The notes: generated by a model from the letters alone, not told the origin. A stretch of DNA of 64,000 bases from a virus (IMGVR_UViG_3300030330_005745:1-64000); one strand, 5' to 3'. Shown: positions 26,670 through 40,846, numbered from the stretch's first letter. Numbers and translations: made by a program.

Positions 26670-26696
26670 CGTCAGTTTTAGGTCGTGACCAGGACC
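26670..26696 (-). ncRNA. Pseudoknot leader motif, copy 1
   Basis: GGUC-CUGGUCAC-GACC-UAAAAC-UGACG; stem 1 GGUC/GACC, loop GUCA pairs with UGAC. Confidence 0.7.
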
Positions 26697-26715
26697 TGGA
26701 GTCTAAGGGGGTGTG

Positions 26716-27657
26716 TCAACCCCCTTTCTTCCAGATGTGCTTGAGCTGTTGCAGGCTGTCACCGGGATATGGGACGTAGCCTGCTTCGAGCATGTTGTCG
26801 AAGAGTTCCCAACTGTCATCTTCTGTAAAAGTTTCGCCCTTGCGGTAGTGCCGCCAGTGACTGAGCGGTGCGTTTACACCGGACTTGGTATGGATAAGGG
26901 TCATGCGTCCCTTGGTATTGCCGTCTTCAGGCGGTGCATACCACCAGGCAACACACTTTTCTGGTACGTCGTTGCATTCGATCCGAATCTGAGACCGCTT
27001 GCTGATGAACTCGCGGTACTTCTCAACCCAGCTCAAGTGTTTGCAACGTGGTTTGAAATGTGGGATCTCTTCCTTGAACGCTTGTAGATGATTGAACTGG
27101 CGATGAAAGGACCCACATGAGCAATAAGGTTCGCCAAAACTAGCTTGCTCTTCCTGCTCTTCGTCAAAGTCACCATCCAAGTCAAGGAGCCGAGGTTTAA
27201 TGTGAAACCCGTCTGGTGCAATGAGATACCCAATATCGAACTGTTCGTTCTGGAGTACGGGGAGTAAGGCATCTTTCGTATCGAAGTGGATGAGCTGATC
27301 AGCAAACCGTGCCTGGAAACGAGCGTTGGGATTGAGCCGTTCGCCTAGTGAGTGTGTGTATGACCAGCCTTTGAACAGGACATAACCGTTGTCCCGCCAT
27401 GCGCTGGGTCCACGATAATTAGGTCCAAGGTACGCAAAGAAGTTCGGTAGTCTGTTTGTGAACTTCGTGAACGCGGCGCAAACCTTTTCCCTGGCAAACT
27501 CTTGGCTGGTGCCGTCAGTGCGAGTGATGCAAACGTTGTCGCCAACAAGACTGATGCCCGCAATGTCAGTGTCATCAAAGTCATCGAATGCTCGGCGTAA
27601 ATTAGAACGGCAATAAATGAGAGACTGTGCCTCATTTAGTTTGGTTTTGGTTTCCAT
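26716..27657 (-). CDS. SWIM zinc-finger protein
   Basis: YCSCGSF...PRCKHL (CxCx(n)CxH); start placed at METKTK. Confidence 0.75.
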   Translation of the reverse strand: METKTKLNEAQSLIYCRSNLRRAFDDFDDTDIAGISLVGDNVCITRTDGTSQEFAREKVCAAFTKFTNRLPNFFAYLGPNYRGPSAWRDNGYVLFKGWSYTHSLGERLNPNARFQARFADQLIHFDTKDALLPVLQNEQFDIGYLIAPDGFHIKPRLLDLDGDFDEEQEEQASFGEPYCSCGSFHRQFNHLQAFKEEIPHFKPRCKHLSWVEKYREFISKRSQIRIECNDVPEKCVAWWYAPPEDGNTKGRMTLIHTKSGVNAPLSHWRHYRKGETFTEDDSWELFDNMLEAGYVPYPGDSLQQLKHIWKKGG

Positions 27658-27714
27658 TTGAATAGTTTGAGTTTGGTAAGATGTATGTAACATCCAAACA
27701 ATCTTGGATATCAC

Positions 27715-27975
27715 ATGGACAACATCAAGTACGTTTCGTTAAGTCAATTCCAGATTGAACCAACGTTGGACGATAAGTTCTGGCTGGAAAAGATTAAACG
27801 ATTCGTAGATGATTGTGAATCAACCTCCACATTGAAAGAAGTGGCGACCATGTTAGCCACGATCGCCACCACAAGACAGGGTGTAATTCGTGGGTTGATC
27901 CAAGACATGTTCATCTTCCAGAATGTTTCTGTCGATGAGCAGGACGTGTCCAACCCAGATATTACTTCAAAGTGA
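27715..27975 (+). CDS. nblA: NblA-like phycobilisome degradation adaptor
   Basis: LDDKFWLEKIKRFVDD...LKEV...VIRGLIQD aligns by eye with VEQQFDLQKYRQQVRD...LEDL...IFKGMIRQ of cyanobacterial NblA (recalled sequence). Confidence 0.6.
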   Translation: MDNIKYVSLSQFQIEPTLDDKFWLEKIKRFVDDCESTSTLKEVATMLATIATTRQGVIRGLIQDMFIFQNVSVDEQDVSNPDITSK

Positions 27976-28974
27976 GGCGTCTTCGCCAGTGGGGTTCTGC
28001 TGAGCAGGCAGGGCAGGTGCATCGATGGTGCGATTGGCAGGGGCGATCATTAGACCGTCCTTCATGCCGTAGCTGCCACCGAGCTTCTCAGCGTCCTGCT
28101 TGGCATGCTGGTTGATGTAATCAGCAAACAGATCCTGGAACTTCCAAGCACTCTCACGGTTGTCATCCGGGATGGTGAGGTTGTCCAGTGATGCAATAGC
28201 TGTGTCTTGATCGCTGTACTCAGGGATGTCAAACCCTTCGATGCAGCAGATCTCGACGTTGTTTGCACCGCGCATGTCGTTCACCAGAGTCGGGATGAAG
28301 ACTGTGGTGGCAAAGAACTTCTCGTTGAAAGCCAGGGGCACTTCAGCGTCCAGTGCTTTGCACAGACACTTGGACATTTCTTTCTCGTACATCTTGACCT
28401 TCTCGGCCATGTCCGTGCCGTTCAAACCTTTGAGGGTAAGGACGATGGGAATCTTGTGAGCGGGCACATTGTCTTTGGTCAGGATGTTGACCAAGTACTT
28501 GGTGCGAACGCTGTACTTACGCTTGTACATCTCACCTTTGGCATTCGCCAGATCAGATGCAGTCTTGTCTGCTTCAAAGAGTTCCTTAACTTCAGGATCC
28601 TCAAAGGTGCCGATGGTTTGACGCATGCCACCGGTTTCTTCGACCATCAGCGGTGAACGCAGCAGAATCTGCAGCCGAGGAACGATGAAGTTCAGTCCTT
28701 CTTCGATAGAGGTGTTGGGTGCCAAGCCAAAGGTTTGCTTGTAATCCCAAAGGACCGAGCCTTTGTCAAAGTCAGTTTCCTTGGCAGTCCAATTGCAGGT
28801 GTCCAGATCGGACTTGCGGATGAACCAACCACGGGTCTTGGATTTGTTCAGAGGTTGAATCGTAACGAGGTTCTGGTAGCCAGAGACAAACTCTTTGGAT
28901 TGGAACATCCGGAAGGAGTCAAGGCTGCGCTTGGTGATGGATGAAGCTTTTTTCACAGTGAGGTTCGTAGTCAT
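27967..28974 (-). CDS. DUF5895-like protein (putative ssDNA-binding/annealing)
   Basis: PRLQILLRSPL, YLVNILTKDNVPAHKIPIVLTLKG, TVFIPTL; acidic flexible tail; next to SSB. Confidence 0.65.
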   Translation of the reverse strand: MTTNLTVKKASSITKRSLDSFRMFQSKEFVSGYQNLVTIQPLNKSKTRGWFIRKSDLDTCNWTAKETDFDKGSVLWDYKQTFGLAPNTSIEEGLNFIVPRLQILLRSPLMVEETGGMRQTIGTFEDPEVKELFEADKTASDLANAKGEMYKRKYSVRTKYLVNILTKDNVPAHKIPIVLTLKGLNGTDMAEKVKMYEKEMSKCLCKALDAEVPLAFNEKFFATTVFIPTLVNDMRGANNVEICCIEGFDIPEYSDQDTAIASLDNLTIPDDNRESAWKFQDLFADYINQHAKQDAEKLGGSYGMKDGLMIAPANRTIDAPALPAQQNPTGEDASL

Positions 28975-28986
28975 GAAATGAAAAGC

Positions 28987-29013
28987 GGGCAGTTTTACGT
29001 CTTGCCCAGGACG
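28987..29013 (-). ncRNA. Pseudoknot leader motif, copy 2
   Basis: CGUC-CUGGGCAA-GACG-UAAAAC-UGCCC, 12 nt before the ATG at 28974. Confidence 0.75.
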
Positions 29014-29117
29014 ATTTTAGTTCTATCCGCCAGCAGCGAATGTAAACATTAATAACACTGTCATTAGCATTGCTGGAAGTAGAAGCAATACCAACAACTG
29101 CAGCTGATCAACTGTCA

Positions 29118-29999
29118 TTAGAACGGAGCGTTTTCATCATCGGTCGGTGGAGGACCGTAGGCACCAGGGAGATCAGGAAGATTCCCCCTTGCACCTACTG
29201 GTTCTTGTACCTTCCAAGGATCACTGGCAGGTTCTTGCGCAATCGCTGCTTGATGCGGAGAGCTGGGAACTTCTTGTTCCTCAGGATCACCAGTACGTCC
29301 ACCCCAAAGGGATGTCACCTCCTGTCCTCCTGCCACGTTTGCTTTTGATTCAACAGGCTTTTGATCAGCAATACCCTTGGGTGCCAAGGTCATGTTGATG
29401 AGCTGCAGCTTGGTTAGCGTGCGTTGCTCTTTGGTTTCTTTATCGGTCCACGAATCAGTGACGATGCGTGCCTCGATTGTCAGACCAGTACCCTTCTTGG
29501 TGTAGTCAGCGATCAGCTTCGCAGGCTGAAAGCGATCGTCGAAACCATTGATGGCGTAGAAGTTGAACAGGTTTGACTCTCCCTTCTTGGTGACAACAGA
29601 GAGAGTTTGGTTTGTGATCATGTGGTTTGGCGTGGTCTTGCACTGCCGTGTGTCTTCAGGATTGATGTCCTTGACACATCGACCTGCCAATACCACGTTG
29701 TTCAGGATTGGGAACTGTTCAACATCGACAGGAGTTACCACTCCACCATGCAATGAAAACGTCCTGGACTCCAGGTCGTACTGAATCTTGGCACCATGGA
29801 TGTAGACACCCATGCCTTTCTTCATGGCACGAAAGCGGTTGCCCTGCTTCTCGCCATAAATGGTCAGCTCAAGATCAGTGGGAGCTTTCTTCCCATAAGG
29901 AGGAAGTGTGATTTTACAGCGCATGACTGTATTGGTTGCGCCCGTGAAAGCCTCGCGGGGATCTTCCCGGAGTTGAGCGCACACTGTGACGAAGTTCAT
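29118..29999 (-). CDS. ssb: Single-stranded DNA-binding protein with two OB folds
   Basis: NNVVLAGRCVKD, IEARIVTDSWTDKET, acidic tail ending DDENAPF. Confidence 0.85.
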   Translation of the reverse strand: MNFVTVCAQLREDPREAFTGATNTVMRCKITLPPYGKKAPTDLELTIYGEKQGNRFRAMKKGMGVYIHGAKIQYDLESRTFSLHGGVVTPVDVEQFPILNNVVLAGRCVKDINPEDTRQCKTTPNHMITNQTLSVVTKKGESNLFNFYAINGFDDRFQPAKLIADYTKKGTGLTIEARIVTDSWTDKETKEQRTLTKLQLINMTLAPKGIADQKPVESKANVAGGQEVTSLWGGRTGDPEEQEVPSSPHQAAIAQEPASDPWKVQEPVGARGNLPDLPGAYGPPPTDDENAPF

Positions 30000-30019
30000 C
30001 GTAGGTACGGAAATGTGTT

Positions 30020-30045
30020 GGCAGTTTTACGTCTTACCTAGGACG
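30020..30045 (-). ncRNA. Pseudoknot leader motif, copy 3
   Basis: CGUC-CUAGGUAA-GACG-UAAAAC-UGCC upstream of ssb. Confidence 0.72.
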
Positions 30046-30051
30046 TGAGGA

Positions 30052-31914
30052 TCAATGCGTCTCCGCCCAGGAATGACCTACGCGTGAGTCGCCCTCAATC
30101 TTACATCTGAATCCAAAAAACTCTTGAGCTTCTGGGAATGCTTTCATGGCTTCTTCACGAATTTTTTCTGTGTGCTGCGGCGAGCAAGCCAACTGAATTT
30201 CATCGTGGATCATCAGCATTTGTTCCCATTGGTGTCCGTGGGGTAAACCCAAGCGGCCTTCGATGTTCTTGTGGGTGTTAATGACAACCTGTTTCATCAG
30301 GATTGCACCAGCTGATTGAAGCAAGACGTTTAGACCCTTGAATGCAGACCTGCAAACCAGAGGACGACGATCAAGACCGATCAAATACCCACGAATTCCA
30401 ATCGTTTCTTCAATCTGATTCTTTAACTTTTTAAGCGCAGGGACACCAGTCATGAAGCCGTTGATGGCTGCCTTACCCATGGTTGCAAGCTTGTCGGGGT
30501 TCTTTTCATTTGGATCAATGATTGTCCCCGCCTTAATTGCACCACAGCCGTACAACATCCCGTACAGAAGACGCTTGCTGATGTCCCTGGTTTCAACACC
30601 GAACTGCTCCTGGTTGTAGGTGTGAATGTCTACTTCTGGATTCACAACCAGTGCTGCGTACTCTCCGTCATCCCACAATGCTAGGTACCCAGCCAAACAG
30701 CGTAGCTCCAGTGCCTTGGCATCAATACCGATTAAGTCCCAACCATCAGGTGGATGAAACAAGCTGCGGCATTCATGGCCGTAAGGTGAATAACCAGCGG
30801 GGACTTGCCCAAGGTTGGGAGATTTATGGGCTGCTCGCCCGGTGATACATCCATTGGTAATTACATTGCCGTGCATCCTGCTGGTTTGATTGTCAACCAA
30901 CTTGAGCCAAGCATTACTTCCATCTGCGATTTGACCAAGACGTTTCTTGATCAACATGTATTCGGCTAGAGGTTTTGCTTCGGGGTATGGGAGTCGTTCC
31001 AACACTTCGTCATTAAGGATTGGATTTCCTTTTTCAGTTTTCTTTTCTGGTTTCCATCCGTACTTTCGTGTAAGTCGATCAACAATTTGCTGACGCGATC
31101 CAGGATTGAATTTCTCATATCGGATCTTTTCGAATGGCTGTCCTGCAACATAACCTCGTTTGGCATTGTTTACCTTTGGTGTAAACCATTCGCTGTGCTT
31201 GATGGGCGGGAAGATCTCTTCTAAATGTTCTTCGATAGCTTTTTGTTTTGCTCTAAGAACATCCACGAGATCAAGAGCTGCATCAATATCAAAAGGAACA
31301 CCTGCTCTAATTTGTTTGTTAATTGCATAAGCAAATTCATGTTCAAGTTTAAGCGATGATCCCGGGTAGTTTTGTTTCCCGATGTGTAACCAAAGCTTCT
31401 TAGTGACTTCAACGTCTTGGATGCAGTACGCCAACATCTCCTCAGAAAATTCGGAGAAGTCTTTGAAGTCGATCTTATGATTGGCCAGTCGCCATCCCCA
31501 GGCCTTAAGTGAAGCGGATCCACGCAGCTTAGGTGGAACCTCCGGATATTGTTCTGTGTCGAGGTCATATAAGACCTCTGCGGGCCAGATGAGTCGTGTG
31601 CAGATGAGTGTGTCAAGAATCCGTGCAGAATGCTGGAAGTTGTAAAGCTTTTCGAGTACGGGGATATCGTAAAAGATTACATTGTGACCAATGAGAATAT
31701 CGGCACTTGCCAAATGAGCAAGAGCCCTATCAACAGCATCAGGCCCGTAAGTAAAAGTCTGACCTCTCTTAATGTCATAGATAACGACACAGTGAGTAAG
31801 AGTGACTTCATCGTAAAGACCATCAGTTTCGATGTCAAAAATTAGCCACGTTTCATTTTCTGAATCGGGCTTCAACGCAAATGCTGAGTTCTTGACCTGC
31901 GAGATATTCGTCAT
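30052..31914 (-). CDS. polA: DNA polymerase family A with 3'-5' exonuclease (T7-like)
   Basis: FDIETDG, GHNVIFYD, YCIQDV exo motifs; GIDAKALELR, SKRLLYGMLYG, IHDE polymerase motifs. Confidence 0.96.
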   Translation of the reverse strand: MTNISQVKNSAFALKPDSENETWLIFDIETDGLYDEVTLTHCVVIYDIKRGQTFTYGPDAVDRALAHLASADILIGHNVIFYDIPVLEKLYNFQHSARILDTLICTRLIWPAEVLYDLDTEQYPEVPPKLRGSASLKAWGWRLANHKIDFKDFSEFSEEMLAYCIQDVEVTKKLWLHIGKQNYPGSSLKLEHEFAYAINKQIRAGVPFDIDAALDLVDVLRAKQKAIEEHLEEIFPPIKHSEWFTPKVNNAKRGYVAGQPFEKIRYEKFNPGSRQQIVDRLTRKYGWKPEKKTEKGNPILNDEVLERLPYPEAKPLAEYMLIKKRLGQIADGSNAWLKLVDNQTSRMHGNVITNGCITGRAAHKSPNLGQVPAGYSPYGHECRSLFHPPDGWDLIGIDAKALELRCLAGYLALWDDGEYAALVVNPEVDIHTYNQEQFGVETRDISKRLLYGMLYGCGAIKAGTIIDPNEKNPDKLATMGKAAINGFMTGVPALKKLKNQIEETIGIRGYLIGLDRRPLVCRSAFKGLNVLLQSAGAILMKQVVINTHKNIEGRLGLPHGHQWEQMLMIHDEIQLACSPQHTEKIREEAMKAFPEAQEFFGFRCKIEGDSRVGHSWAETH

Positions 31915-32086
31915 TTTTGTTAATCCAGTTCAGGATTTGTTGCGCACCAGCACGGTGAGGATGGGAATAAATCCGCCCAAGGGCAGATGTTGAATCTAGA
32001 TCGATCAGCTGAAAACTGTTGGTTTCCATACAAGGTTTGATACCTTGAGGTTTACCATTCTTCCAGGTAGCGATGACGTAACTCAT
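31853..32086 (-). CDS. Hypothetical protein
   Basis: 77-aa ORF upstream of polA. Confidence 0.5.
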   Translation of the reverse strand: MSYVIATWKNGKPQGIKPCMETNSFQLIDLDSTSALGRIYSHPHRAGAQQILNWINKNDEYLAGQELSICVEARFRK

Positions 32087-32140
32087 CTGTCAGTTTATTA
32101 ACCAACAGATGATATTAGATCTTGTAGGTTATGCAACCTA

Positions 32141-32890
32141 CTACTTGCTGTATCCAACAAAGCCTCCTTCTTTTTTACGTTTCGATAGTGCTTTGGAGGC
32201 TTCGGTGTTAGCACGTTGGCTGCCATGGACCAGCAATGCAAACGGTTTGTCACCCAAGCAGTGGCTGTCGTCATGGTCAATTTCTAGACCAAGGTCAGCT
32301 GCTTCTTGTTCTGTATAGACCACCTGTGAGGTGCGAATAAAAACGTCAGGATTTTTATTTATAATTGCATCGAGGTTACCGCCCTTCGATGCTGTCAAAT
32401 AAAAATTGCTAGGAATTTGGTCTTTGAGATTGAGCCACATGTTGAGTGACTTGGTGTAGGCATAGAAGGTTTGCTTGGGCCGCTGCTTTGCAACGAGCAT
32501 CCATGCCCGCATGTATTCTTCTGTCCAGAAGTCACCAGACTCATGGACACGGATTAGTTTCTTAGGTTTGGTAACCGTAAGAGAGACATCGATCAGATCA
32601 CGGAGCAGCATGGCTTGGTTGCCATTGCTGTACATGGTCTTACGGATTAGATCCCAGTTGTGCCAGCGTGCTTCTCTGACGTTGGGCCGCACTTCACTCA
32701 TTGCAGCAAAGCAACGGAAGTCTTTTGCGTCGGTGCCGTTGTTGTTGGGAATGTCAGTGATCTTGCCTGTCACGCGGTCTGCATAGGTACGGCAGACACC
32801 AGCGTGTGGACAGGAATAGCCTGCTGGCAGTGAGAAGATTAGTCTGTTGCGGAGCTTACCGTTGCCGGTAGAGAACTTGAGGGTTTGCAT
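32141..32890 (-). CDS. GP88-family protein
   Basis: SLPAGYSCPHAGVC, FRCFA, IRVHESGDF and FYAYTKS motifs. Confidence 0.75.
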   Translation of the reverse strand: MQTLKFSTGNGKLRNRLIFSLPAGYSCPHAGVCRTYADRVTGKITDIPNNNGTDAKDFRCFAAMSEVRPNVREARWHNWDLIRKTMYSNGNQAMLLRDLIDVSLTVTKPKKLIRVHESGDFWTEEYMRAWMLVAKQRPKQTFYAYTKSLNMWLNLKDQIPSNFYLTASKGGNLDAIINKNPDVFIRTSQVVYTEQEAADLGLEIDHDDSHCLGDKPFALLVHGSQRANTEASKALSKRKKEGGFVGYSK

Positions 32891-32919: not shown

Positions 32920-32959
32920 ATGGGACTTACACAGCGTCTGCACCCGCGCTGATGCCCAT
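32920..32959 (-). ncRNA. CAU/WGUAAGU internal-loop hairpin, copy 1
   Basis: AUGGG-CAU-CAGCG...CGCUG-UGUAAGU-CCCAU. Confidence 0.65.
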
Positions 32960-32962
32960 CAA

Positions 32963-33424
32963 TCAATCCATGTACTTACTTTCAATCCTTTCTACATAAT
33001 GCATCGTTGCTTCTGCAATAAACAATGAAATATTTCCTTGATAATGTTCTTCATTTAAAAACGAAGCAGCTTCTTTAATTCTTTTCTGTTCTTCTTCAGT
33101 GAATGCAACACCTACGGCACCAGGTACCGTCTTGGGAGTGTATTCGTTTTTGACATAAGCAGGATTATCTTCCATCCATCGTTCGATGTCTGTGCGTTTG
33201 AAATAAAGGTTACGTCCACTCTTCATCAAAGGTTTTGGAAAGAGTCCGGACTTTATCTTTCGGTGGATTGTGTACCGACTGACGTCAAGCTCATCCATTA
33301 CTTCTTGCATGCTCCAGCGGTCCTTACATTCTTTTAAAGTTTTGACTGGACCAGTGGAATAGGTGTTGGAGTTTGCCCATTCCTTTTCATTAGCCAGACG
33401 TCTTTTTGCTGCTTGGGGTGTCAT
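32963..33424 (-). CDS. AlpA/excisionase-like winged-HTH regulator with a C-terminal ribbon-helix-helix-like segment
   Basis: WSMQEVMDELDVSRYTIHRKIKSGLFPKP...FKRTDIERW; start placed at MTPQAAK. Confidence 0.8.
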   Translation of the reverse strand: MTPQAAKRRLANEKEWANSNTYSTGPVKTLKECKDRWSMQEVMDELDVSRYTIHRKIKSGLFPKPLMKSGRNLYFKRTDIERWMEDNPAYVKNEYTPKTVPGAVGVAFTEEEQKRIKEAASFLNEEHYQGNISLFIAEATMHYVERIESKYMD

Positions 33425-33473
33425 TGCAGTAGCGGTTGTTACAGGTGTGTAAAGGAGAGGTAAGATAAAGGAA

Positions 33474-33522
33474 CGTTCACCTCTATCTTGGAGGCGCAAC
33501 CAACTGATCCACGGAACGGGGG
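33474..33522 (+). promoter_or_regulatory. Glutamine-II (Downstream-peptide) riboswitch
   Basis: CGUUCACCUC...GAGGCGCA...GGAACGGGG with CGUUC/GAACG and CCUC/GAGG pairing, upstream of a YRG peptide. Confidence 0.85.
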
Positions 33523-33545
33523 ACAGTCTTATGCGGAGAACCAAA

Positions 33546-33692
33546 ATGAAACTCGTCTATCGCGGAGTTCCATACGAGCGCAAGGAAGCTTTTACCAGCT
33601 ACCTGTGTACTCAAAACCTCAAAGTCCAACGGGCTGAAGCGGAGAAAGAGCACGATCGTCGCAATAATAGCAAGAAAGAAATGATCGTTTGA
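33546..33692 (+). CDS. DUF4278-family peptide (48 aa)
   Basis: Hand translation MKLVYRGVPYERKEAFTSYL...KKEMIV; LxYRGVxY signature. Confidence 0.85.
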   Translation: MKLVYRGVPYERKEAFTSYLCTQNLKVQRAEAEKEHDRRNNSKKEMIV

Positions 33693-33712
33693 CGGTTGTT
33701 ACACTGTTAGAT

Positions 33713-33738
33713 AGGCTGCCTCCGGGTGGCCTTTTTTT
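33713..33738 (+). terminator. Intrinsic terminator after the DUF4278 peptide
   Basis: AGGCUGCC-UCCG-GGUGGCCU stem plus U tract. Confidence 0.8.
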
Positions 33739-33891
33739 ATGGACAAAGAAGAACTGAAAGAAAAGATCATTGAATTGATTGAACAAGACATTGAAGATGG
33801 TGAGGTGTTGCCTCACTATGGTTTGATTGCGGATTGGAAGATTCGGTACATGGATCTAGCTAAGCTGATCTGGCAGTACCTCCACGTTTGA
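33739..33891 (+). CDS. 50-aa hypothetical protein
   Basis: Hand translation MDKEELKEKIIELIEQDIEDGEVLPHYGL... Confidence 0.5.
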   Translation: MDKEELKEKIIELIEQDIEDGEVLPHYGLIADWKIRYMDLAKLIWQYLHV

Positions 33892-33893
33892 AC

Positions 33894-34145
33894 ATGCTCA
33901 CGTCATTTATATCTTTAGTGTTGGCATCCGTAATGTGGGTACAGGTGCCGCAATGGGAGAATGACTGGTCCAAATGTGCAGTTGATGTACCTGATGTGGG
34001 TTGTCATTGGTACATCGTTAATCCTGACAATACCTTTGGTAAGGGATTTTCCTGGGAGAATGCCCCATGGTTCAGCGCCGAGGGTCTCCTTGATGTCTCA
34101 AAGTTGGAGAACACCATGTTGACCCTCCAAGGCAAAAAAGACTAA
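33894..34145 (+). CDS. Small exported Trp/Cys protein, cyanophage type
   Basis: Signal-like N-terminus; WVQVPQWENDWSKCAVDVPD...CHWY. Confidence 0.7.
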   Translation: MLTSFISLVLASVMWVQVPQWENDWSKCAVDVPDVGCHWYIVNPDNTFGKGFSWENAPWFSAEGLLDVSKLENTMLTLQGKKD

Positions 34146-34972: not shown

Positions 34973-35307
34973 TAGGCAGCACGATTGTAGTCGTCATCAA
35001 GACGTTCAATGTCGGCCTCAGACAGGTGAGAGCCCCGTTGAACCTCGATGATGCCAAGTCCCTCTGGGCCTGCTTCTGCACGATGTACGGCATTCTCAGG
35101 CACAAAGAGAGTGGTCCCTGGAGCAGCTGGAGTAACAGTGTTACCGCAGGTGAGTTTACCGGATCCTTGAACGATTACCCAATTCTCAGAGCGATGCCAA
35201 TGGCGTTGCAGACTGATGCGTTGGTTCGGATGAATCCAAATCTTTTTAACTAAAAAACCTTCGCCTGTTTTTATGGTTTCAAAGTATCCCCAAGGACGTT
35301 TTTCCAT
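34972..35307 (-). CDS. Cupin, type II mannose-6-phosphate isomerase C-terminal domain
   Basis: RPWGYF, VKKIWIHPNQRISLQRHWHRSENW, IEVQRG, DIERLDDDY. Confidence 0.88.
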   Translation of the reverse strand: MEKRPWGYFETIKTGEGFLVKKIWIHPNQRISLQRHWHRSENWVIVQGSGKLTCGNTVTPAAPGTTLFVPENAVHRAEAGPEGLGIIEVQRGSHLSEADIERLDDDYNRAA

Positions 35308-35612
35308 TACAGCTTTACATCGCTGTAATAATTATCCATGGTGTTACGGTAATCATCAACAACCTTTTCAATGTTTTCAGCAGCACAAAGGCGCATCTGA
35401 TCTACTTCAACAGGTTGTTGGAGATGATCCCATTTGACTTGAATGAACTTCCGACGGCGCGTACCAGTCCTGGTCTTTTGTGTTTTAAGAATCAGATCAG
35501 TGACGGTACCGAAGCGTTGACCCATGTTGATCGAAGTCATCTTGGGTTTGTCTGCAACGCGTTCACCCACTTGGAAACGAAAAGTGGGGTCAAATTTTTC
35601 TTGACTAGGCAT
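35307..35612 (-). CDS. Hypothetical protein (SH3/KOW-like)
   Basis: FQVGERV...GTVTD...IQVKWD. Confidence 0.6.
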   Translation of the reverse strand: MPSQEKFDPTFRFQVGERVADKPKMTSINMGQRFGTVTDLILKTQKTRTGTRRRKFIQVKWDHLQQPVEVDQMRLCAAENIEKVVDDYRNTMDNYYSDVKL

Positions 35613-35925
35613 TGGTTTGAGGAATGGTGTCGAGGTGGAGGTTTTCTAAAGCGAGCAGCGTTGCTGTTGTGCCAAGGATACGAAAAGCATCCTCAATTAA
35701 TTCATAGTTGTTTGACTCGTTGTTGTAATAATCGTTGAGGATTTTTTCAGCCTGCTCAAACCCCCCTGGGTCACCAGTGAGTCTGGTCAGGATGACACTA
35801 GACATGTTGTCCGTAAACATCTCTGAGAGTTTTTTACGGACGACAGGCCACGTCCATGATGGAACAAGATCAATGACTTGATGAACAAGTTGAAGATCTG
35901 TTAACGAGTGTTCGTGTGAAATCAT
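35605..35925 (-). CDS. Hypothetical protein
   Basis: Start placed at MISHEH, just after the hairpin/U tract. Confidence 0.6.
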   Translation of the reverse strand: MISHEHSLTDLQLVHQVIDLVPSWTWPVVRKKLSEMFTDNMSSVILTRLTGDPGGFEQAEKILNDYYNNESNNYELIEDAFRILGTTATLLALENLHLDTIPQTNA

Positions 35926-35926
35926 G

Positions 35927-35950
35927 AAAAAACCCCGGGTGTACCGGGGT
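35927..35950 (-). terminator. Terminator-like hairpin abutting a start codon
   Basis: ACCCCGG/CCGGGGU stem plus U tract, then C-AUG. Confidence 0.7.
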
Positions 35951-35971
35951 CGATGCTCTCCCCGTGCCAGG

Positions 35972-36331
35972 TTAGGCAGGGGTTGCTTCAGTTTCAACTA
36001 CTTCTTCAAGCATTCCTGACTCTTGAAGTTTGTCGAGCATGGCAACCATGATGTTGGCATTCTCTTGGGTCTTTTCCATGAAGTGTTTGGCTTTTTCTGC
36101 AGTGATGCTGTGAACGCAGCCATTGTCTTCGATGAAGACCCATGAGCCATCTGGTTGTGGCTTGCCCTTCTCCAGTGCCCAACGTTCGCAATTGCGGATA
36201 TATTGGATCTGGAGGTTGTGTGAGTCAGTCAGACCACGGTCGTCGATCCAGGTGAGGCCGACGTTGTACCGAGTGTCTTCGTCTTTGAAGCAATGAGGCT
36301 GAGGAAGAAACTGTTTGAAAGCTCCTAGCAT
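35972..36331 (-). CDS. Hypothetical protein
   Basis: Start placed at MLGAFKQF, downstream of the tRNA. Confidence 0.6.
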   Translation of the reverse strand: MLGAFKQFLPQPHCFKDEDTRYNVGLTWIDDRGLTDSHNLQIQYIRNCERWALEKGKPQPDGSWVFIEDNGCVHSITAEKAKHFMEKTQENANIMVAMLDKLQESGMLEEVVETEATPA

Positions 36332-36351
36332 TGTCTTGTGTAGGTTTGGTT

Positions 36352-36440
36352 TGGTGAGAGTGGTGGGACTTGAACCCACATAGCCATTACTGACTGACAG
36401 ATTTTAAGTCTGTTGCGTCTACCAATTCCGCCACACTCTC
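36352..36440 (-). tRNA. trnL: tRNA-Leu(UAA), with encoded CCA
   Basis: GAGAGUG/CACUCUC acceptor stem, GGUAGAC D-arm, ACAGA-CU-UAA-AA-UCUGU anticodon arm, long variable arm, GUUCAAGUC T-loop, ACCA end. Confidence 0.95.
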
Positions 36441-36444
36441 AGGT

Positions 36445-36481
36445 CTAGGACTTACACCACCCTTGGCTTGTGGATGCCTAG
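36445..36481 (-). ncRNA. CAU/WGUAAGU internal-loop hairpin, copy 2
   Basis: CUAGG-CAU-CCAC...GUGG-UGUAAGU-CCUAG, 4 nt before the tRNA 5' end. Confidence 0.65.
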
Positions 36482-36485
36482 CTGA

Positions 36486-38276
36486 TCAGGACTTTAGTTG
36501 TTCCTCACGGACGTGCAACGCTTCCTTGAATGCATGTTCAACATTGGAACGTTCAACATCATCAAGACGTTTGTTACCTACATCCGCAATTTGAACAACG
36601 CTCATCACACCGTTGTCAACCGTTAGTTGAATGGTGTAACGAGGTTTGTTCTCGATCATGCACAAGATGATGAGATGTTTCATCTTCTTGATTCCTTCTG
36701 CATATCCATGTCCACCACCAACGCAGTTACGTACGGCACGGCCCCACGCAGCAAGTTGGTGTGTGTCATGCGGTTGGAAGAACGAGAAGTAACCATCGCC
36801 AGGTAGGGTGCCTGACTGTGTGTGGTTGATTACATCGTTGAAAGGGATACGCATGGGGTTTGGAAACAATTTCTGTGGTAGATCAATGTTGGGGTTGGTG
36901 ATCTTCCAGGTCTCTGCCATGAGATGGTCATGCCATTCCTGGAGACGCCAACGCTTTGGCTTGATGTTGTCGAGCCGACCGGATGCAATGCATTGGGTCA
37001 GCATCTGATAGGTATCACGCCAAAGATGGAAGTAAATATGTATGTTGCCTGTCTTACTATCTGTGCTGATGTATTCTCTTTCTTCTAGTTCACGTTGGTA
37101 ATACGTGTGCATCATGTTGAGGTATGACTCAACAGGAAGATTGTCACGCATCCATTGTTTACCTGTATCACTGTGATAACCAGGAAATTCACAGCAACGC
37201 AACCAGTTGTACCTGGAATGAAGCAGGTTTAGATCCATGTCACGATAAATAGCTTTAACGTGATGCATTGAATCAATAAACTGATTAAGAATTGCATACG
37301 GTCTGACAAGAAGCCTGACATCATATTCATCTTTTTCAGTTTCTTCTTCATGGATGGCAAAGGTATCTTTCATGGCTTGTGCCACCATTGATCTAAACCA
37401 TTTAGCGGACCACACATCTTCTAACCAAGGACCACTCCAACGTTTACGTAATAGATCAATAATGGTATCAACATCGTGAACATAATCATCGCCTCCAGAC
37501 AACCACTTAGGCCTTGAATAAGACCCCGACATAATTTTTGTGAAGGTACAATTTGCTGGGTTCAAACGTTTGAAATAATGAGCATTATTATTGCCGATAA
37601 ATGTAGGGATACCTTTAAGTAATTCTGCTTGCCATTTATTAATAGCCTTTGAAATTTCATGAGTAGCACCCCAGGTGTTGATGCGATGAGTTTCGGTTAC
37701 TTTCCTCCAATAACTACCGGTGTAACCATCAACAAACTCATCTTTGGTAAAGAATAAAGTTTTGCGATACCAGAAGGTACGGCCATCTTTGATGCGTGGG
37801 AGCATGTCATCTTGTGTGCCATGCACATGATCAAACATTCCTTTATTGACATAACTGCCTTTAGCAATAAAACGTTCATCGCATTGCTTACGTGCTGCAG
37901 CTGTATCTTTGAAGGTAAAGCTAAGGCCATAGACATAGCCATCATCTTTACGTCGTGGTATCCAGGCAGCAACCCACAGTTGTTTGTGGTAGTAAATAAC
38001 TGCCACAGGTTTAGGTTCTTCACCGAAGACAGGCTTGGTAATTAGGTGTACCTTTCCTTGTTTGACAGACTTTGAATTGATGTTGTCAACAACTTCGTTC
38101 CAAGTTCTGTCGTTGACGATGTCAGATGGGATAAGGTTCGAGGGCCTGCCGTTGGGATGTGTATTCTTCTTTTTGGCTTTGCGATCTTCTGCAGCCATGA
38201 CAGCTGCAAGTTTCTTGCGGGTTTGGTCATAGCCTGCAACTTCAAGTGCAAGCTGATCGGGGAGATTGAAATGCAT
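36486..38276 (-). CDS. PcfJ-domain protein
   Basis: C-terminal QLAAWGRAVRNCVGG...YTIQL...QIADVGN pattern. Confidence 0.75.
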   Translation of the reverse strand: MHFNLPDQLALEVAGYDQTRKKLAAVMAAEDRKAKKKNTHPNGRPSNLIPSDIVNDRTWNEVVDNINSKSVKQGKVHLITKPVFGEEPKPVAVIYYHKQLWVAAWIPRRKDDGYVYGLSFTFKDTAAARKQCDERFIAKGSYVNKGMFDHVHGTQDDMLPRIKDGRTFWYRKTLFFTKDEFVDGYTGSYWRKVTETHRINTWGATHEISKAINKWQAELLKGIPTFIGNNNAHYFKRLNPANCTFTKIMSGSYSRPKWLSGGDDYVHDVDTIIDLLRKRWSGPWLEDVWSAKWFRSMVAQAMKDTFAIHEEETEKDEYDVRLLVRPYAILNQFIDSMHHVKAIYRDMDLNLLHSRYNWLRCCEFPGYHSDTGKQWMRDNLPVESYLNMMHTYYQRELEEREYISTDSKTGNIHIYFHLWRDTYQMLTQCIASGRLDNIKPKRWRLQEWHDHLMAETWKITNPNIDLPQKLFPNPMRIPFNDVINHTQSGTLPGDGYFSFFQPHDTHQLAAWGRAVRNCVGGGHGYAEGIKKMKHLIILCMIENKPRYTIQLTVDNGVMSVVQIADVGNKRLDDVERSNVEHAFKEALHVREEQLKS

Positions 38277-38298
38277 GATGTTGTGTAGGTATGAGAAA

Positions 38299-38326
38299 GG
38301 GGCAGTTTAGTGTCATGCCCAGGACA
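38299..38326 (-). ncRNA. Pseudoknot leader motif, copy 4
   Basis: UGUC-CUGGGCAU-GACA-CUAAAC-UGCCC. Confidence 0.75.
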
Positions 38327-38332
38327 TTTGAG

Positions 38333-38590
38333 TCAGTCTAGATACCGATCGGATGTGTCAATGACTTTCCAGTTAAGGTCAAGATCATCAACGTAACGGA
38401 GGAAAGCAGCTCCATCGTGGGGGAATGGTACCTCTGGATCAACTGCAAAGCTTGCTTCGCATAGTGCCGGGCCGTATTCAGCAGGTTCAAGCATAGTTTG
38501 TGCATGGACAAGAACCATGTCTTCAACCGTTGCTTCCACATAGACACGTTGATCGTCAAAGGTAGTTTCATGGATTGAGATAACAGCCAT
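38333..38590 (-). CDS. Early hypothetical protein
   Basis: 85 aa, acidic; EPAEYGPALC. Confidence 0.65.
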   Translation of the reverse strand: MAVISIHETTFDDQRVYVEATVEDMVLVHAQTMLEPAEYGPALCEASFAVDPEVPFPHDGAAFLRYVDDLDLNWKVIDTSDRYLD

Positions 38591-38853
38591 TAGTTGATCT
38601 GTTTGCGAACGGTCAGATGTTTGACCATGGCATAACCCATGGAATGAATCGATGAATCCTTCGATGCAAAGATCCCATTGGGACCATACTCCTCAAAGTA
38701 TTCTTCGAAGGCATCAATGATGCGTTGCCTGTTGCTCATGTCTGCAGTTCTGTATGCAGCCATAAGTTTTTGAGCAAAGCCGCCACCGTAGGTTTCGATG
38801 CGTTGGACAGTTGCTTCGATCGTTGGATCGGTAGGTGTGAGCTTGTTGAGCAT
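38590..38853 (-). CDS. Early hypothetical protein (YGGGF motif)
   Basis: IETYGGGFAQKLMAAYRTADMSNRQRIIDAF, a pattern common in small phage proteins. Confidence 0.65.
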   Translation of the reverse strand: MLNKLTPTDPTIEATVQRIETYGGGFAQKLMAAYRTADMSNRQRIIDAFEEYFEEYGPNGIFASKDSSIHSMGYAMVKHLTVRKQIN

Positions 38854-38861
38854 GAGTTGAT

Positions 38862-39059
38862 TTAGAACAGTTTGATGTTGCGCTTGGACAGGCCAGTGCC
38901 CGGGATTCCAACGGAACCACGGACACCAGACCCACGAACATTCATTGTGAACAAGAATGGTCCAAGCTTGATTGATTTGCTGAATGACTTCACACCACGT
39001 TCAGTGATGTTGAAGCCACCGACAGTTTTGTCGAAGTTGAATGCAGATCTTTTAGTCAT
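38862..39059 (-). CDS. DUF4236-like small basic protein
   Basis: FSKSIKLGP...SVGIPGTGLS. Confidence 0.7.
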   Translation of the reverse strand: MTKRSAFNFDKTVGGFNITERGVKSFSKSIKLGPFLFTMNVRGSGVRGSVGIPGTGLSKRNIKLF

Positions 39060-39393
39060 TTAGTGGAATACTTTTGCGTTTAAATGGTTCAGTCCAGGGA
39101 GTACGATGATCCATGTAAATAATGTCATCGGTATGTGAGGTGACGTCACCTTTGTAAGCTTTGAAGAAATAACGATCAGCTTCTTTGTACTTTGGTACAA
39201 AACAAGACTCACTGGCAAATTCCCAGTCAGCAAGCTGACAACAAAGCTCTTCATAAACTTCAAAAGGATCTTGTCTTTGATCTTGGAACTTTTGATTCCA
39301 AGCGTCAAAATCCCCCCTGGTCATTACAGCTTCTTCAATAATTGGAACAAGTCTGTAATGAACAAGAGTTACAAGTTCTTGTTTGTCTGTCAT
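39052..39393 (-). CDS. Early hypothetical protein
   Basis: 113-aa ORF in a coupled run. Confidence 0.55.
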   Translation of the reverse strand: MTDKQELVTLVHYRLVPIIEEAVMTRGDFDAWNQKFQDQRQDPFEVYEELCCQLADWEFASESCFVPKYKEADRYFFKAYKGDVTSHTDDIIYMDHRTPWTEPFKRKSIPLND

Positions 39394-39680
39394 TGTTTGT
39401 CGGGATTGAGAGCGTCAGGCAGGATGTACCTTGGATCATCCTTTTCCATGTTCGACATAACGAACACTTCTCCTGTATTTGGATCAAGGAATCCACCGAT
39501 GAATCCTGCGCCGCAAGAGTCAGCTTTTTCCCTGAGTTGTGCAGTGAGCTGCATCATGCGCAGCTTGGTGGACTGTGGAGTGTTGTCCGGTACAGCAGGT
39601 TGGTTTGGCATAGTGAAATCAGGTGTAGGAATGGTGAATGAATGAGCAGTGTAGGCGGTGGTTTCACCGATGATTAACAT
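39390..39680 (-). CDS. Early hypothetical protein
   Basis: 96-aa ORF (GFIGGFLDP); start uncertain. Confidence 0.55.
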   Translation of the reverse strand: MLIIGETTAYTAHSFTIPTPDFTMPNQPAVPDNTPQSTKLRMMQLTAQLREKADSCGAGFIGGFLDPNTGEVFVMSNMEKDDPRYILPDALNPDKQ

Positions 39681-39737
39681 AGAACTTTAGCTTTTCTTAA
39701 GGATGCCGAAGACAAAGGCCCCGACATCCCAAGGTAT

Positions 39738-39980
39738 CTACTTGTAATGCAGTTGTCTAGTCCTGTAATCCAAGACGCTTTCCGTCCATGTGGAATCAGG
39801 ATGATCAAGGACAGCACGGCGGGCTTTTTCGACGGCCTCTTCCGTGCCACCACAGTTCAACATCAATGCAACAGCAGTGTCTAGGTCTGCGAGCAGATGT
39901 GAGACAGCATTTGGAAGTCCACGGGGTATAGTTCTACCTTTCTGTTCGTAATACTCAGTGATGTAGTCAGGATAATCCAT
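39738..39980 (-). CDS. Early hypothetical protein
   Basis: 80-aa ORF. Confidence 0.55.
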   Translation of the reverse strand: MDYPDYITEYYEQKGRTIPRGLPNAVSHLLADLDTAVALMLNCGGTEEAVEKARRAVLDHPDSTWTESVLDYRTRQLHYK

Positions 39981-40196
39981 GAGATGAAGAAGAAAGATTG
40001 AAGGGTTATCTATAAGAACTAAAAGATATCTTGGTACTCTCCCTGCGGGGGTCCGGGGGGATTGATTCTTCTACTTCGATCAATCCCATGTTCTTACCTT
40101 CTGTATCAATCTGTGATGCCAGATGTCTTGCAAATGCACCACGTCTTCTTGGATTGAAGACTGTCTTCTTGGGCTTGTTTGTCCTGGGACGTGCCA

Positions 40197-40553
40197 TCAA
40201 ATTAAAGCGAGGATGGTCAGCCAACTATCGGGGTGGTCAGGTTCGACTTCATCGTCTGCCGGTGTTAAGCAGGTTGAATCGAGTGCCCACTCCTCGATTT
40301 CTCCGTTGGAAGGGACAGGGTACCATCCTTCGAGCGAGTCCTCGATGTTTTCTGGCTTCCAGTAACACTGGAGTTTGCCACTTGGGTCTTTGAAGACACA
40401 GCCCGTGATCGGGTGCGTGTTTTCGTCTTCTTGGTTGTAGAGGAGCGGGTCGTAGTTGACTTCTGCGGGGAACTGCTCTTGGCACTCCTCTTCTGTGAAG
40501 GGGACGTAACCGGTGAGTTCTTCTGCGATGCGTTTGGTTTCTGGATGAAGCAT
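40197..40553 (-). CDS. Acidic early protein
   Basis: 118 aa; EIEEWALDSTCLTPADDEVEPDHPDSWL. Confidence 0.7.
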   Translation of the reverse strand: MLHPETKRIAEELTGYVPFTEEECQEQFPAEVNYDPLLYNQEDENTHPITGCVFKDPSGKLQCYWKPENIEDSLEGWYPVPSNGEIEEWALDSTCLTPADDEVEPDHPDSWLTILALI

Positions 40554-40642
40554 GAGATCAACTCCGTGATGATGATTGAGATGATGACAATGATGTGCAG
40601 GATGACATCATCGTGTGTGTCATTCTTGGTGGTAGTCGGCAT
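40265..40642 (-). CDS. Overprinted ORF: N-terminal TM helix plus Ser/Thr/Lys/Arg-rich tail
   Basis: MPTTTKNDTHDDVILHIIVIISIIITELISCFIQ...; TM segment fills the gap between two genes. Confidence 0.4.
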   Translation of the reverse strand: MPTTTKNDTHDDVILHIIVIISIIITELISCFIQKPNASQKNSPVTSPSQKRSAKSSSPQKSTTTRSSTTKKTKTRTRSRAVSSKTQVANSSVTGSQKTSRTRSKDGTLSLPTEKSRSGHSIQPA

Positions 40643-40796
40643 CGCCTGCCACCTCCTCTGACATGAGTTCTTGCATGAGCTGTTCTTGCTCGTTGGCAAT
40701 GTCGTTGAGAACGAATTGCTGGTCTTGGGTGTACTCAGTTTTGACAGCATCGTTGAGACGTTGCTGGTCGAGTAGCCAGGTCTTGATAAGAGACAT
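40620..40796 (-). CDS. 58-aa acidic protein
   Basis: Hand translation MSLIKTWLLDQQRLNDAVKTEY...EEVAGDADYHQE. Confidence 0.6.
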   Translation of the reverse strand: MSLIKTWLLDQQRLNDAVKTEYTQDQQFVLNDIANEQEQLMQELMSEEVAGDADYHQE

Positions 40797-40819
40797 GATG
40801 TGAAATGGTATAGGTCAGT

Positions 40820-40846
40820 GAGTAGTTTAAGGACGTGCTCAGGTCC
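40820..40846 (-). ncRNA. Pseudoknot leader motif, copy 5
   Basis: GGAC-CUGAGCAC-GUCC-UUAAAC-UACUC. Confidence 0.68.

Follow-up and report, generated by a model that had tools for sequence, protein, structure and literature searches.

A coremin-like RNA pseudoknot before replication-arm genes of an S-EIV1-like cyanophage recurs in other phages and bacteria

Why does the same short pseudoknot precede five different genes in one phage? The window, the whole 64,000-nt stretch of viral DNA that was analysed (IMGVR_UViG_3300030330_005745:1-64000), comes from an S-EIV1-like cyanophage. A sequence-only reading of the window had taken five pseudoknots for a set of translational operators, perhaps read by the phage SSB, or for a ligand-sensing RNA. 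These proposals are weighed here against other explanations. The copies and the genes around them are as follows.

26670-26696, minus strand: pseudoknot copy 1, stem 1 GGUC/GACC, stem 2 GGUCA/UGAC, 21.2 bits
28987-29013, minus strand: pseudoknot copy 2, stem 1 CGUC/GACG, stem 2 GGGCA/UGCCC, 29.8 bits, precedes the DUF5895 gene
30020-30045, minus strand: pseudoknot copy 3, stem 1 CGUC/GACG, stem 2 GGUA/UGCC, 26.5 bits
38299-38326, minus strand: pseudoknot copy 4, stem 1 UGUC/GACA, stem 2 GGGCA/UGCCC, 27.5 bits
40820-40846, minus strand: pseudoknot copy 5, stem 1 GGAC/GUCC, stem 2 UGAG/CUCA with one C.A mismatch, 22.5 bits
25801-26648, minus strand: 39-aa ORF (ATG at 26648) and Gp157/Gam-like gene (25801-26520), cistrons behind copy 1
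27967-28974, minus strand: DUF5895 protein, 335 aa, cistron behind copy 2
29118-29999, minus strand: ssb, 293 aa, SSB OB-fold at residues 99-200, cistron behind copy 3
30052-31914, minus strand: family A DNA polymerase (polA), stop codon abuts copy 3
36486-38276, minus strand: PcfJ-like protein, 596 aa, cistron behind copy 4
40620-40796, minus strand: 58-aa ORF behind copy 5

All five intergenic minus-strand copies were found where the earlier reading had placed them, and the downstream genes are those it had listed. A degenerate pattern matches the window five times, against 0.08 matches expected from shuffles. At up to one mismatch, it matches the whole 82,948-bp genome five times on the reverse strand and never on the forward strand, with no further copies. 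The distance to the start codon, given earlier as about 12-24 nt, is corrected to 11-22 nt from the 3' end of the pseudoknot. The 39-aa ORF whose ATG follows copy 1 by 20 nt is conserved, begins MFE... in all relatives and is itself upstream of the Gp157/Gam-like gene. The polA stop codon lies 6 nt before the start of copy 3, and the ssb ATG lies 18 nt past the end of that copy. Copies 4 and 5 start 6 nt and 5 nt after the stop of an upstream ORF and end 22 nt before the ATG of the PcfJ-like gene and of the 58-aa ORF, respectively; relatives keep a 57-58-aa ORF behind a GGAC-type copy. A -10-like TAGACT hexamer stands immediately upstream of copy 4. The start codon of DUF5895, at a spacing of 11 nt, was perhaps called too early, because relatives have homologous GACUACGAA within the leader. 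The leaders mix C, A and U, and short U runs follow the knot only in copies 2 and 4.

Related loci were fetched with polA as the anchor, and homologues were gathered with a sequence-only model carrying no structure. This gave 189 copies in related S-EIV1-like cyanophages, every one on the gene strand, and 110 distinct homologues for the covariation test. Stem 1 is a 4-bp helix (N-G-W-C/G-W-C-N), the first loop is 1-2 nt long and begins with C, and the junction is one variable nucleotide. Stem 2, of 5-6 bp, forms between the hairpin loop and the bases after the UUAAAC linker. Among the 110 homologues, 93% of cells are paired over both helices together. Stem 1 is paired in 99.8% of cells, its first pair being CG in 81, GC in 11 and UA in 10, and its third pair UA in 101 and AU in 9; stem 2 is paired in 88.6%, and five of its six pairs change on both sides. 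Double changes in the two helices number 129, against 44 in shuffles. The covariation score is 0.386, compared with 0.177 in shuffles (none of 500 reached 0.386) and at most 0.083 in slid controls. At each copy the sense transcript thus folds into a compact pseudoknot of the H type, in the 5' leader of a gene, with the stem 1 and loop-to-tail pairings that had been described. The CU loop start and AAAC linker, thought invariant, are so within this genome; relatives have CC in 13/110 and AAAA+G or AAAG in 11/110. Conservation of stem 1 and the linker exceeds what structure alone requires. No family in Rfam 15 was matched, even at E<=10, as the earlier reading had supposed; the element goes unannotated because Rfam has no family for it.

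The knots are strand-specific and confined to the replication arm. Five complete genomes, including that of the isolate S-EIV1, carry 4-7 copies each within about 16 kb around polA. In all 143 unique S-EIV1-like contexts an ATG-initiated ORF follows within 60 nt, at 19-23 nt in 98 of them, and the overall spacing to the ORF is 12-60 nt. Over the 16 nt after the knot the leader is pyrimidine-rich and unstructured, with 5.9% G versus 24% in control sequence. Could the repeat be a signal in the DNA, that is, a promoter, a primase site or a protein-binding site? A TAGACT-type hexamer at -13 to -8 in 32/142 contexts is in keeping with this. The idea is nevertheless extremely improbable, given the compensatory changes in two interleaved helices, the frequent G.U pairs (26 U-G at one pair), which would be A.C mismatches on the opposite strand, and the restriction of matches to one strand orientation. 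Upstream of the knots in the S-EIV1-like contexts, no conserved sequence was found besides the stop codon and the hexamer, and many copies begin 5 nt past a stop codon, leaving a promoter no space.

The closest known relative of the knot, coremin/xrRNA_C, was not named in the sequence-only reading, and our literature search found no paper tying coremin to phages. Coremin is a 20-nt motif of plant RNA viruses, of sequence GUCCGAAGACGUUAAACUAC, which resists Xrn1 and belongs to class xrRNA_C (PMC6546385). Its hp1 is a 3-4-bp G-U-C/G-A-C stem with a loop YGAD (4 nt) or YGNNAD (6 nt); in BNYVV the loop requires Y first and A next to last (PMC6546385). The spacer is UUAAACUAC, in which A16, A17, C18, U19 and A20 are essential, and in BNYVV mutation of any of these five bases, or a change of the loop-closing C-G to G-C, abolishes Xrn1 stalling (PMC6546385). 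The 5'->3' exoribonuclease stops one nucleotide before hp1, and resistance requires a second hairpin, hp2, directly downstream (PMC6546385). The phage equivalent of hp1 matches the coremin stem at G-C (110/110), U-A (101, plus 9 A-U) and the closing C-G (109/110). Its loop starts with C and has A next to last in 110/110, the last base being U in 89, C in 14 and A in 7. The linker UUAAACU keeps AAA in 110/110, C in 99/110 and U in 101/110. The positions of coremin critical against Xrn1 are the near-invariant positions in the phages, and both elements are intergenic and occur in several copies per genome. The phage loop misses the coremin consensus in its second base (U or C, not G) and its length (7-10 nt). 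The equivalent of A20 is G in 97/110 copies and pairs with the loop. No hp2 is present; the 16 nt after the knot cannot form a hairpin, and the covarying stem 2 is found instead. Judged by its shared core, the phage knot represents coremin in a naturally occurring Watson-Crick form.

More than 116 viral contigs and about 100 stretches of bacterial genomes carry a pseudoknot whose conserved stem and linker match. Among 125 bacterial copies, 81 pair at every one of the five stem 2 positions, versus 32 with shuffled partners. Canonical coremin stems with a CGAA tetraloop and a CGAAAU hexaloop occur on knot-bearing contigs L080/L105 and L287. The neighbours elsewhere are unrelated (scaffold genes, a YHS-domain gene, hammerhead ribozymes, terminators and short upstream ORFs) and share no metabolic theme.

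This spread bears on the proposal of a translational operator through which the phage SSB, or some other early protein bound to it, would co-regulate a set of replication and recombination genes. Replication or recombination genes do stand behind all five copies, each knot is followed by an unstructured pyrimidine-rich leader like that of the T4 gene 32 operator, and stem 1 and the linker are conserved beyond structural need. Against this, the core recurs beside unrelated genes in unrelated phages and bacteria, its conserved positions are those critical in coremin, a protein-free element, and another structured leader takes the place of the knot before orthologous gp88 in relatives. Pfam searches named no dedicated RNA-binding domain in the 30 arm ORFs tested. 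We consider an operator quite improbable; the proposal is unsupported because neither the spread nor the gp88 replacement is expected of it. A riboswitch that senses a small molecule through a pseudoknot aptamer like that of preQ1-I is very improbable. The knot recalls preQ1-I in size and architecture; copies also occur in tandem, and some Firmicutes have an SD or a U-tract immediately next to the 3' strand of stem 2. However, the Rfam search gave no match, stem 2 is a stable helix, the neighbour genes have no common metabolic theme, and a pocket equivalent to preQ1-I L2 is missing because the junction is a single variable nucleotide. In this phage no SD or terminator overlaps the fold, and among S-EIV1-like contexts an SD-like word lies within 30 nt after the knot in 1/114 and a U-tract in 14/114. 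A preQ1-I-like riboswitch was accordingly rejected, and ligand sensing appears unlikely in this phage.

The reading we prefer, with slightly less than even confidence, is that the knot would be a protein-independent roadblock shielding or insulating the downstream cistron. Without a dedicated protein, it would act as a mechanically robust stop that punctuates a long early transcript. Cyanobacteria have essential RNase E and RNase J (PMC8682795). RNase J, a 5'->3' exoribonuclease in cyanobacteria, or 5'-end-dependent entry of RNase E would halt at the knot, and a stable mRNA would result, starting at the knot and retaining some 20 nt of G-poor, unstructured leader from which translation would initiate without an SD. 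With at least 4-5 nt between it and the upstream stop codon, the knot would also stay folded during upstream termination and shield the downstream start site from upstream ribosomes. The recurrence of a coremin-like core in unrelated phages and bacteria favours a protein-free roadblock, as does the presence of another structured leader at the orthologous position in relatives. Several observations speak against it. The phage leaders have no hp2, which coremin and its Watson-Crick variants need against Xrn1. In contig L144 an ORF, a knot and a type III hammerhead form a unit that is present four times, cleavage falling 7 nt 3' of the knot, and a U-tract or terminator follows 8-17% of instances; in both situations the knot comes to lie at the 3' terminus of the upstream RNA, which 5'->3' shielding leaves unexplained. 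Nor does the distribution of the knot across bacterial classes follow RNase J. At E<=0.01, the knot was matched in 10/151 genomes of Bacilli, 3/151 of Alphaproteobacteria, which have RNase J, and 1/151 of Gammaproteobacteria. A match to RNase J was absent in one of five knot-bearing genomes.

Ribosomes rather than nucleases may be the target, the knot blocking post-termination sliding or re-initiation, pausing termination or stimulating recoding. Lying 4-9 nt past a stop codon, it would abut the mRNA entrance of the terminating ribosome and uncouple adjacent cistrons. When upstream ORFs of 50 codons or more are counted, their stop falls 3-9 nt ahead of the knot in 61/114 S-EIV1-like, 40/117 bacterial and 66/165 other viral contexts, and it is almost never closer than 4 nt. 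In several bacterial phyla an upstream ORF of 16-27 codons ends just before or within the knot. Coremin itself stalls scanning ribosomes (PMC10520033) and stimulates -1 frameshifting at about 30%, an effect also seen in an E. coli colony screen (PMC10321173). However, roughly every second copy lacks an upstream ORF close by, as with copy 2, 104 nt after the end of ssb, and copy 1, 19 nt after a hairpin. Read-through frames stop within a few codons, out of frame with the next gene. A -1 PRF stimulatory pseudoknot was rejected, since the five copies are preceded by sense codons and then a stop, and none by a slippery X XXY YYZ heptamer. Overall, action on ribosomes is unlikely.

The knot might instead belong to the upstream cistron as a 3'-end element. 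It would then act as an intrinsic terminator or attenuator built on a pseudoknot, or it would stop 3'->5' exonucleases once the RNA has been cleaved or terminated a short way downstream. A U-tract follows directly in 12% of S-EIV1-like (14/114), 17% of bacterial and 8% of other viral instances; contig L267 has three tandem knot-plus-terminator units, and the hammerhead units of L144 and the nearness of knots to upstream stops agree with it. In the window, by contrast, the knots are followed by mixed C/A/U leaders and a gene within 11-22 nt, termination would silence ssb, DUF5895 and PcfJ, and an ORF follows in every S-EIV1-like context. We regard this role as distinctly unlikely.

The wider proposal that goes with the roadblock, which we hold a shade more tentatively, is that these knots may be the first exoribonuclease- or ribosome-resistant (xrRNA-like) RNAs of DNA phages and bacteria, a 27-nt protein-free module with a coremin core that would define stable sub-messages of polycistronic transcripts across many phyla. 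To our knowledge, RNAs that resist exoribonucleases have been described only in eukaryotic RNA viruses. A coremin-like relative, common in DNA phages and present in bacteria, would, if true, carry the concept to mRNA decay by RNase J and RNase E, and would explain how a compact phage gives the genes of one long transcript differing stability and translation. The shared core raises the question of convergence versus common origin across kingdoms. The present alignment could seed an Rfam family, and at 27 nt the knot is an attractive candidate part for synthetic biology, to stabilise mRNAs or insulate cistrons.

Polycistronic phage mRNAs are known to carry repeated signals for processing and stability, namely the T7 RNase III sites and the SP82 5' stabiliser. 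Like the knots, they are conserved structures repeated between early cistrons, and they set mRNA ends and stability; they are long hairpins cut by RNase III, whereas the knot is a 27-nt pseudoknot. The T4 gene 32 operator is likewise an H-type pseudoknot at the 5' edge of an unstructured leader before the gene of a ssDNA-binding protein. It is single-copy, specific to gene 32 and read by gp32, whereas five copies serve five genes here and the phage-type knot is also found in genomes and contexts without ssb; an ssb-specific operator of this type was rejected on the five different genes and the unrelated neighbours elsewhere. The luteovirus -1 frameshifting pseudoknots (BWYV, PLRV) resemble the knot in their short stem 1, 2-nt C-first loop 1, 1-nt junction and A-rich loop crossing the minor groove of stem 1. 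Their activity depends on an overlapping -1 frame and on a slippery heptamer located 5-9 nt upstream, and the phage knots have neither; BWYV, an ordinary frameshifter, does not stall Xrn1 (PMC10321173). Coremin of BNYVV, cucumoviruses and other eukaryotic RNA viruses shares with the knot the GUC/GAC stem with C-G closure, the pyrimidine loop start, the penultimate loop A and the UUAAACU linker. It has a 4-7-nt loop, a hypothesised non-canonical loop-spacer contact and an obligatory hp2, whereas the knot has its longer loop, 5-6 bp of Watson-Crick pairing after UUAAAC, G for A20 and no hp2, in DNA genomes whose bacterial hosts have RNase J, not Xrn1. The laboratory-selected xrRNA_WCC variants, with Watson-Crick loop-spacer pairing, retain Xrn1 resistance and frameshift stimulation, and hp2 is still needed against Xrn1 and dispensable for frameshifting (PMC10321173). 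Their stem 2 has 4 bp, whereas the phage knots are natural, do without hp2 and have a longer stem 2; Hit1 (GGGG-CCUA) and Hit2 (GGCG-CGCU) carry canonical pairs on the coremin scaffold (PMC10321173), as the phage knot does.

The five knot sequences (27-nt H-type RNA pseudoknots, numbered 1-5 within 26670-40846) were as described in the sequence-only reading. A degenerate knot pattern matched exactly these five in the window, all on the minus strand, compared with 0.08 expected, and no further copies were found in the whole 82,948-bp IMG/VR virus record, whose first 64 kb make up the window. The genes behind copies 1-5 were also those named earlier: a conserved 39-aa ORF ahead of a Gp157/Gam-like gene, DUF5895, SSB, a PcfJ-like gene, and a 58-aa ORF. 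A loose structural scan gave a sixth candidate at 25327 (-), with a CGUA/UACG stem and a UUGG/CCAA contact; as it falls within an ORF, does not have the conserved core, and was missed by the sequence model, it was treated as chance.

The family A DNA polymerase of the window is 66% identical to its counterpart in Synechococcus phage S-EIVl, a polar freshwater cyanophage; no other isolate exceeds 60%. The order ThyX, gp88-like, polA, and ssb around polA is common to both. A cyanophage outer-membrane-protein domain and a Glutamine-II riboswitch fit a cyanobacterial host. All five knot sites lie within the minus-strand arm (~21-43.5 kb), which carries replication and recombination genes. The Glutamine-II (downstream-peptide) riboswitch (33471-33527 (+), 47.5 bits) is on the strand opposite to the arm genes and is directly followed by a 53-aa ORF and two further small plus-strand ORFs (33531-34145 (+)); the long minus-strand HTH ORF probably has its true start later than 33544. 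A solitary 86-aa plus-strand ORF (27715-27975 (+)) is also found within the arm. In the loose structural scan, near-identical sequence occurred at genome positions 319 and 82870 (+), at both record ends, which suggests terminal direct repeats.

Using polA as an anchor, 57 related viral loci were fetched. In loci with 64-80% polymerase identity, the polA-ssb spacer held the same knot, with loop and tail sequences that differ yet remain complementary. A homologue model was built from 58 copies without structure, so as to avoid circularity, and was searched against 985 kb on both strands. The 189 matches were all on the gene strand and in S-EIV1-like loci only, at least seven of them in S-EIVl itself. 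Each of five complete genomes has 4-7 copies, all within ~16 kb around polA on a single strand. The covariation alignment comprised 110 distinct rows, with the pseudoknot ..((((.[[[[.[[.))))......]]]]]].... imposed. Paired cells amounted to 93.1% (81.4% in shuffles), both sides had changed in 129 cells (44 in shuffles), and the covariation score was 0.386 compared with 0.177 in shuffles, none of 500 reaching the observed value. When the partners were slid by 1-3 columns, the score was 0.083 or lower. The covarying two-helix pseudoknot proposed from the window was thus upheld in homologues gathered by a structure-free model, and the knot is a real RNA element with strong support. G.U pairs are frequent in the alignment, which fits an RNA of the gene strand and speaks against double-stranded DNA; a reading of the element as a DNA signal is unlikely.

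Stem 1 has 4 bp (N-G-W-C/G-W-C-N), of which the G-C and the loop-closing C-G are essentially invariant. The loop has C first and A-(U/A/C) last, the linker is UUAAAC (AAA in 110/110), and stem 2, formed by the loop and the bases 3' of the linker, is freely variable. An ATG-initiated ORF begins within 60 nt downstream in 143/143 unique contexts, in 98 of them at 19-23 nt. The leader between knot and ORF contains 5.9% G compared with 24% in control sequence, and no SD was found in it. On the upstream side, a long ORF has its stop codon exactly 5 nt ahead of stem 1 in 57/142 contexts and 6 nt ahead in nine, and the distance is almost never shorter; across the S-EIV1-like, bacterial, and other viral sets, 34-54% of knots have an upstream stop at a distance of 3-9 nt. 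When the A site of a ribosome holds a stop codon, an RNA structure that begins 5 nt further on lies immediately beyond the mRNA entrance, which is the geometry of frameshift stimulators. We read the 5-nt pile-up as the tightest packing that leaves the knot folded during ribosome termination. In locus L038, the knot begins one nucleotide past a tRNA.

Replacement of the SD by the knot was considered and rejected, because SD-less, G-poor leaders typify the whole early arm: in a rough ORF map, SD-like words are nearly absent from the minus-arm genes, and the majority of leaders are G-poor whether or not a knot is present. The minus arm at 25-43.5 kb, with its SD-less, C/A/U-rich, and G-poor leaders, differs from the plus arm at 44-72 kb; in a crude ATG-first ORF map, many late structural genes carry GAGG- or AGGA-type SDs, and on this basis translation of early and of late genes seems to be initiated in different ways.

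Positions -40 to -1 held little information beyond the stop triplet at -8 to -6 and a -10-like TANNNT hexamer, which overlaps the upstream stop in 32/142 contexts, copy 4 among them. Given this overlap, certain primary transcripts may carry a knot at their extreme 5' end. A promoter as a general explanation was rejected on the sparse upstream information and on the lack of TAGAYT enrichment in the genome, and was kept as a remark on copy 4. The -10-like hexamers and two terminator-like elements of the window are as follows.

38335-38340, minus strand: TAGACT/TAGATT hexamer, 8 nt before knot 4
31993-31998, minus strand: TAGACT/TAGATT hexamer, 7 nt ahead of a small GCCC/GGGC hairpin that precedes polA
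26700-26705, minus strand: TAGACT/TAGATT hexamer
~35926-35955, minus strand: terminator-like GC-rich hairpin with U6 run
~41519-41548, minus strand: terminator-like GC-rich hairpin with U6 run

The hexamers are possible early or middle promoters that would place a structure at the transcript 5' end. The GC-rich hairpin/U6 elements stop a single nucleotide short of the ATG that starts the following gene (…GGGGUUUUUUC-AUG) and constitute a third type of structured junction in the early arm.

A second conserved leader element, CUGGGCAU-variable hairpin-UGUAAGUCCCAG, was found at positions equivalent to those of the knot. It has no Rfam match, is present in many copies in loci L006-L063, and occurs three times in the window.

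~32920-32965, minus strand: CUGGGCAU-hairpin-UGUAAGUCCCAG element
36441-36490, minus strand: CUGGGCAU-hairpin-UGUAAGUCCCAG element
43385-43430, minus strand: CUGGGCAU-hairpin-UGUAAGUCCCAG element

gp88, a gene near polA (MKLLKFSTGN), is preceded by the CUGGGCAU element in the window (~32930) and by a GGAC-type knot in relatives. In L018 and L009, either the knot or the CUGGGCAU element comes after the same upstream flank, and in L033/L034 the CUGGGCAU element precedes the gene after polA, the usual position of ssb. The element also adjoins the 5' side of tRNA genes. This interchangeability argues for a generic role, marking or protecting a cistron boundary, rather than for the site of one regulator.

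An exact pattern, consisting of the commonest stem 1 and linker with loop and tail free, was found in more than 116 viral contigs among the matches listed and in 117 stretches of bacterial assemblies, whose taxa include Firmicutes, Saccharibacteria, Chloroflexi, and Delta- and Alphaproteobacteria. Of 125 bacterial matches, 81 have stem 2 paired at all five positions, compared with 32 when the partners are shuffled; hence, about 100 of these are genuine pseudoknots. Contexts outside the clade are unrelated to ssb and include prophage scaffold genes, small acidic proteins, hammerheads, terminators, and upstream ORFs, so the operator read by phage SSB that had been suggested for the five copies is unlikely. 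A riboswitch is likewise an unlikely reading. Rfam returned nothing at the knots of all five copies and 12 bacterial loci at gathering and permissive thresholds; the sole matches in the knot-locus searches were a tRNA, a Glutamine-II riboswitch, and the hammerheads of L144.

L144, a bacterial MAG contig, carries at 2332-5825 (-) a tandem array of four units, each made up of an ORF with its stop, a gap of 7-12 nt, a knot, and a type III hammerhead. Two of the hammerheads pass the Rfam cut-off, and once cleaved, each upstream message would end 7 nt past its knot. L267 has three tandem repeats of knot plus short intrinsic terminator at 4620-4800 (+), which look like a serial attenuator. A conserved 16-27-codon upstream ORF with an SD (e.g. 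MKRFMIPRIAHCKEGC) was found in L078, L093, L145, L159, L074, L095, L082, L171, L153, and L072 (Chloroflexi, Zixibacteria, Firmicutes, and Deltaproteobacteria), with its stop 4 nt before the knot or at a UGA/UAA inside it. In Anaerolineales, the knots stand in tandem behind this ORF and are followed by a YHS-domain gene. The arrangement looks like a leader-peptide switch, possibly metal-related.

The analysis established the fold, conservation pattern, placement, and autonomy of the knot. As to function, we infer a protein-independent roadblock, which would halt 5'->3' decay and insulate the downstream start site, so that each knot-led cistron would become a separately stable message. In cyanobacteria, RNase J and RNase E are both essential (PMC8682795). 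Several points weaken the roadblock reading. Phage knots lack hp2, the second hairpin of the plant-virus motif coremin, and in some contexts a hammerhead or terminator directly follows the knot, which then stands at the 3' terminus of the upstream RNA. Matches to the knot model at E<=0.01 occurred in 10/151 Bacilli, 3/151 Alphaproteobacteria, and 1/151 Gammaproteobacteria, a distribution confounded by phylogeny. RNase J was found in 4/5 knot-bearing genomes, and in this genome sample, a further weakness, knot occurrence did not distinguish RNase J-bearing taxa from those lacking the enzyme. For these reasons, a ribosome-directed role and a 3'-end role for the upstream RNA both stay live beside the roadblock.

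Coremin (xrRNA_C) consists of GUCCGAAGACGUUAAACUAC followed by hp2, and its stalling of Xrn1 requires the hp1 stem with a C-G closing pair, a YGAD or YGNNAD loop, and spacer nucleotides A16, A17, C18, U19, and A20 (PMC6546385, PMC10520033). It also blocks scanning ribosomes (PMC10520033) and stimulates -1 frameshifting; a randomisation screen yielded variants with Watson-Crick loop-spacer pairing that retain Xrn1 resistance and frameshift stimulation, whereas Xrn1 is not stalled by ordinary frameshifter knots (PMC10321173). No papers pairing "coremin motif" with "phage" were found in the literature searched, and as far as searched the knot is unannotated and unpublished. Canonical coremin-type stems, GUC-CGAA-GAC then UUAAACUGC and GUC-CGAAAU-GAC then UUAAACUAU, occur on L080/L105 (Selenomonadaceae MAG) and L287 (viral contig), which also bear several Watson-Crick-type knots. 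The phage knot shares the identical stem and UUAAACU with coremin, and its near-invariant positions are the mutation-sensitive positions of coremin. It differs in its longer loop, which forms a canonical stem 2 of 5-6 bp, in having G where coremin has A20, and in the missing hp2. Judged by sequence, the knot appears to be a Watson-Crick, hp2-less variant of coremin/xrRNA_C in an unexpected host range.
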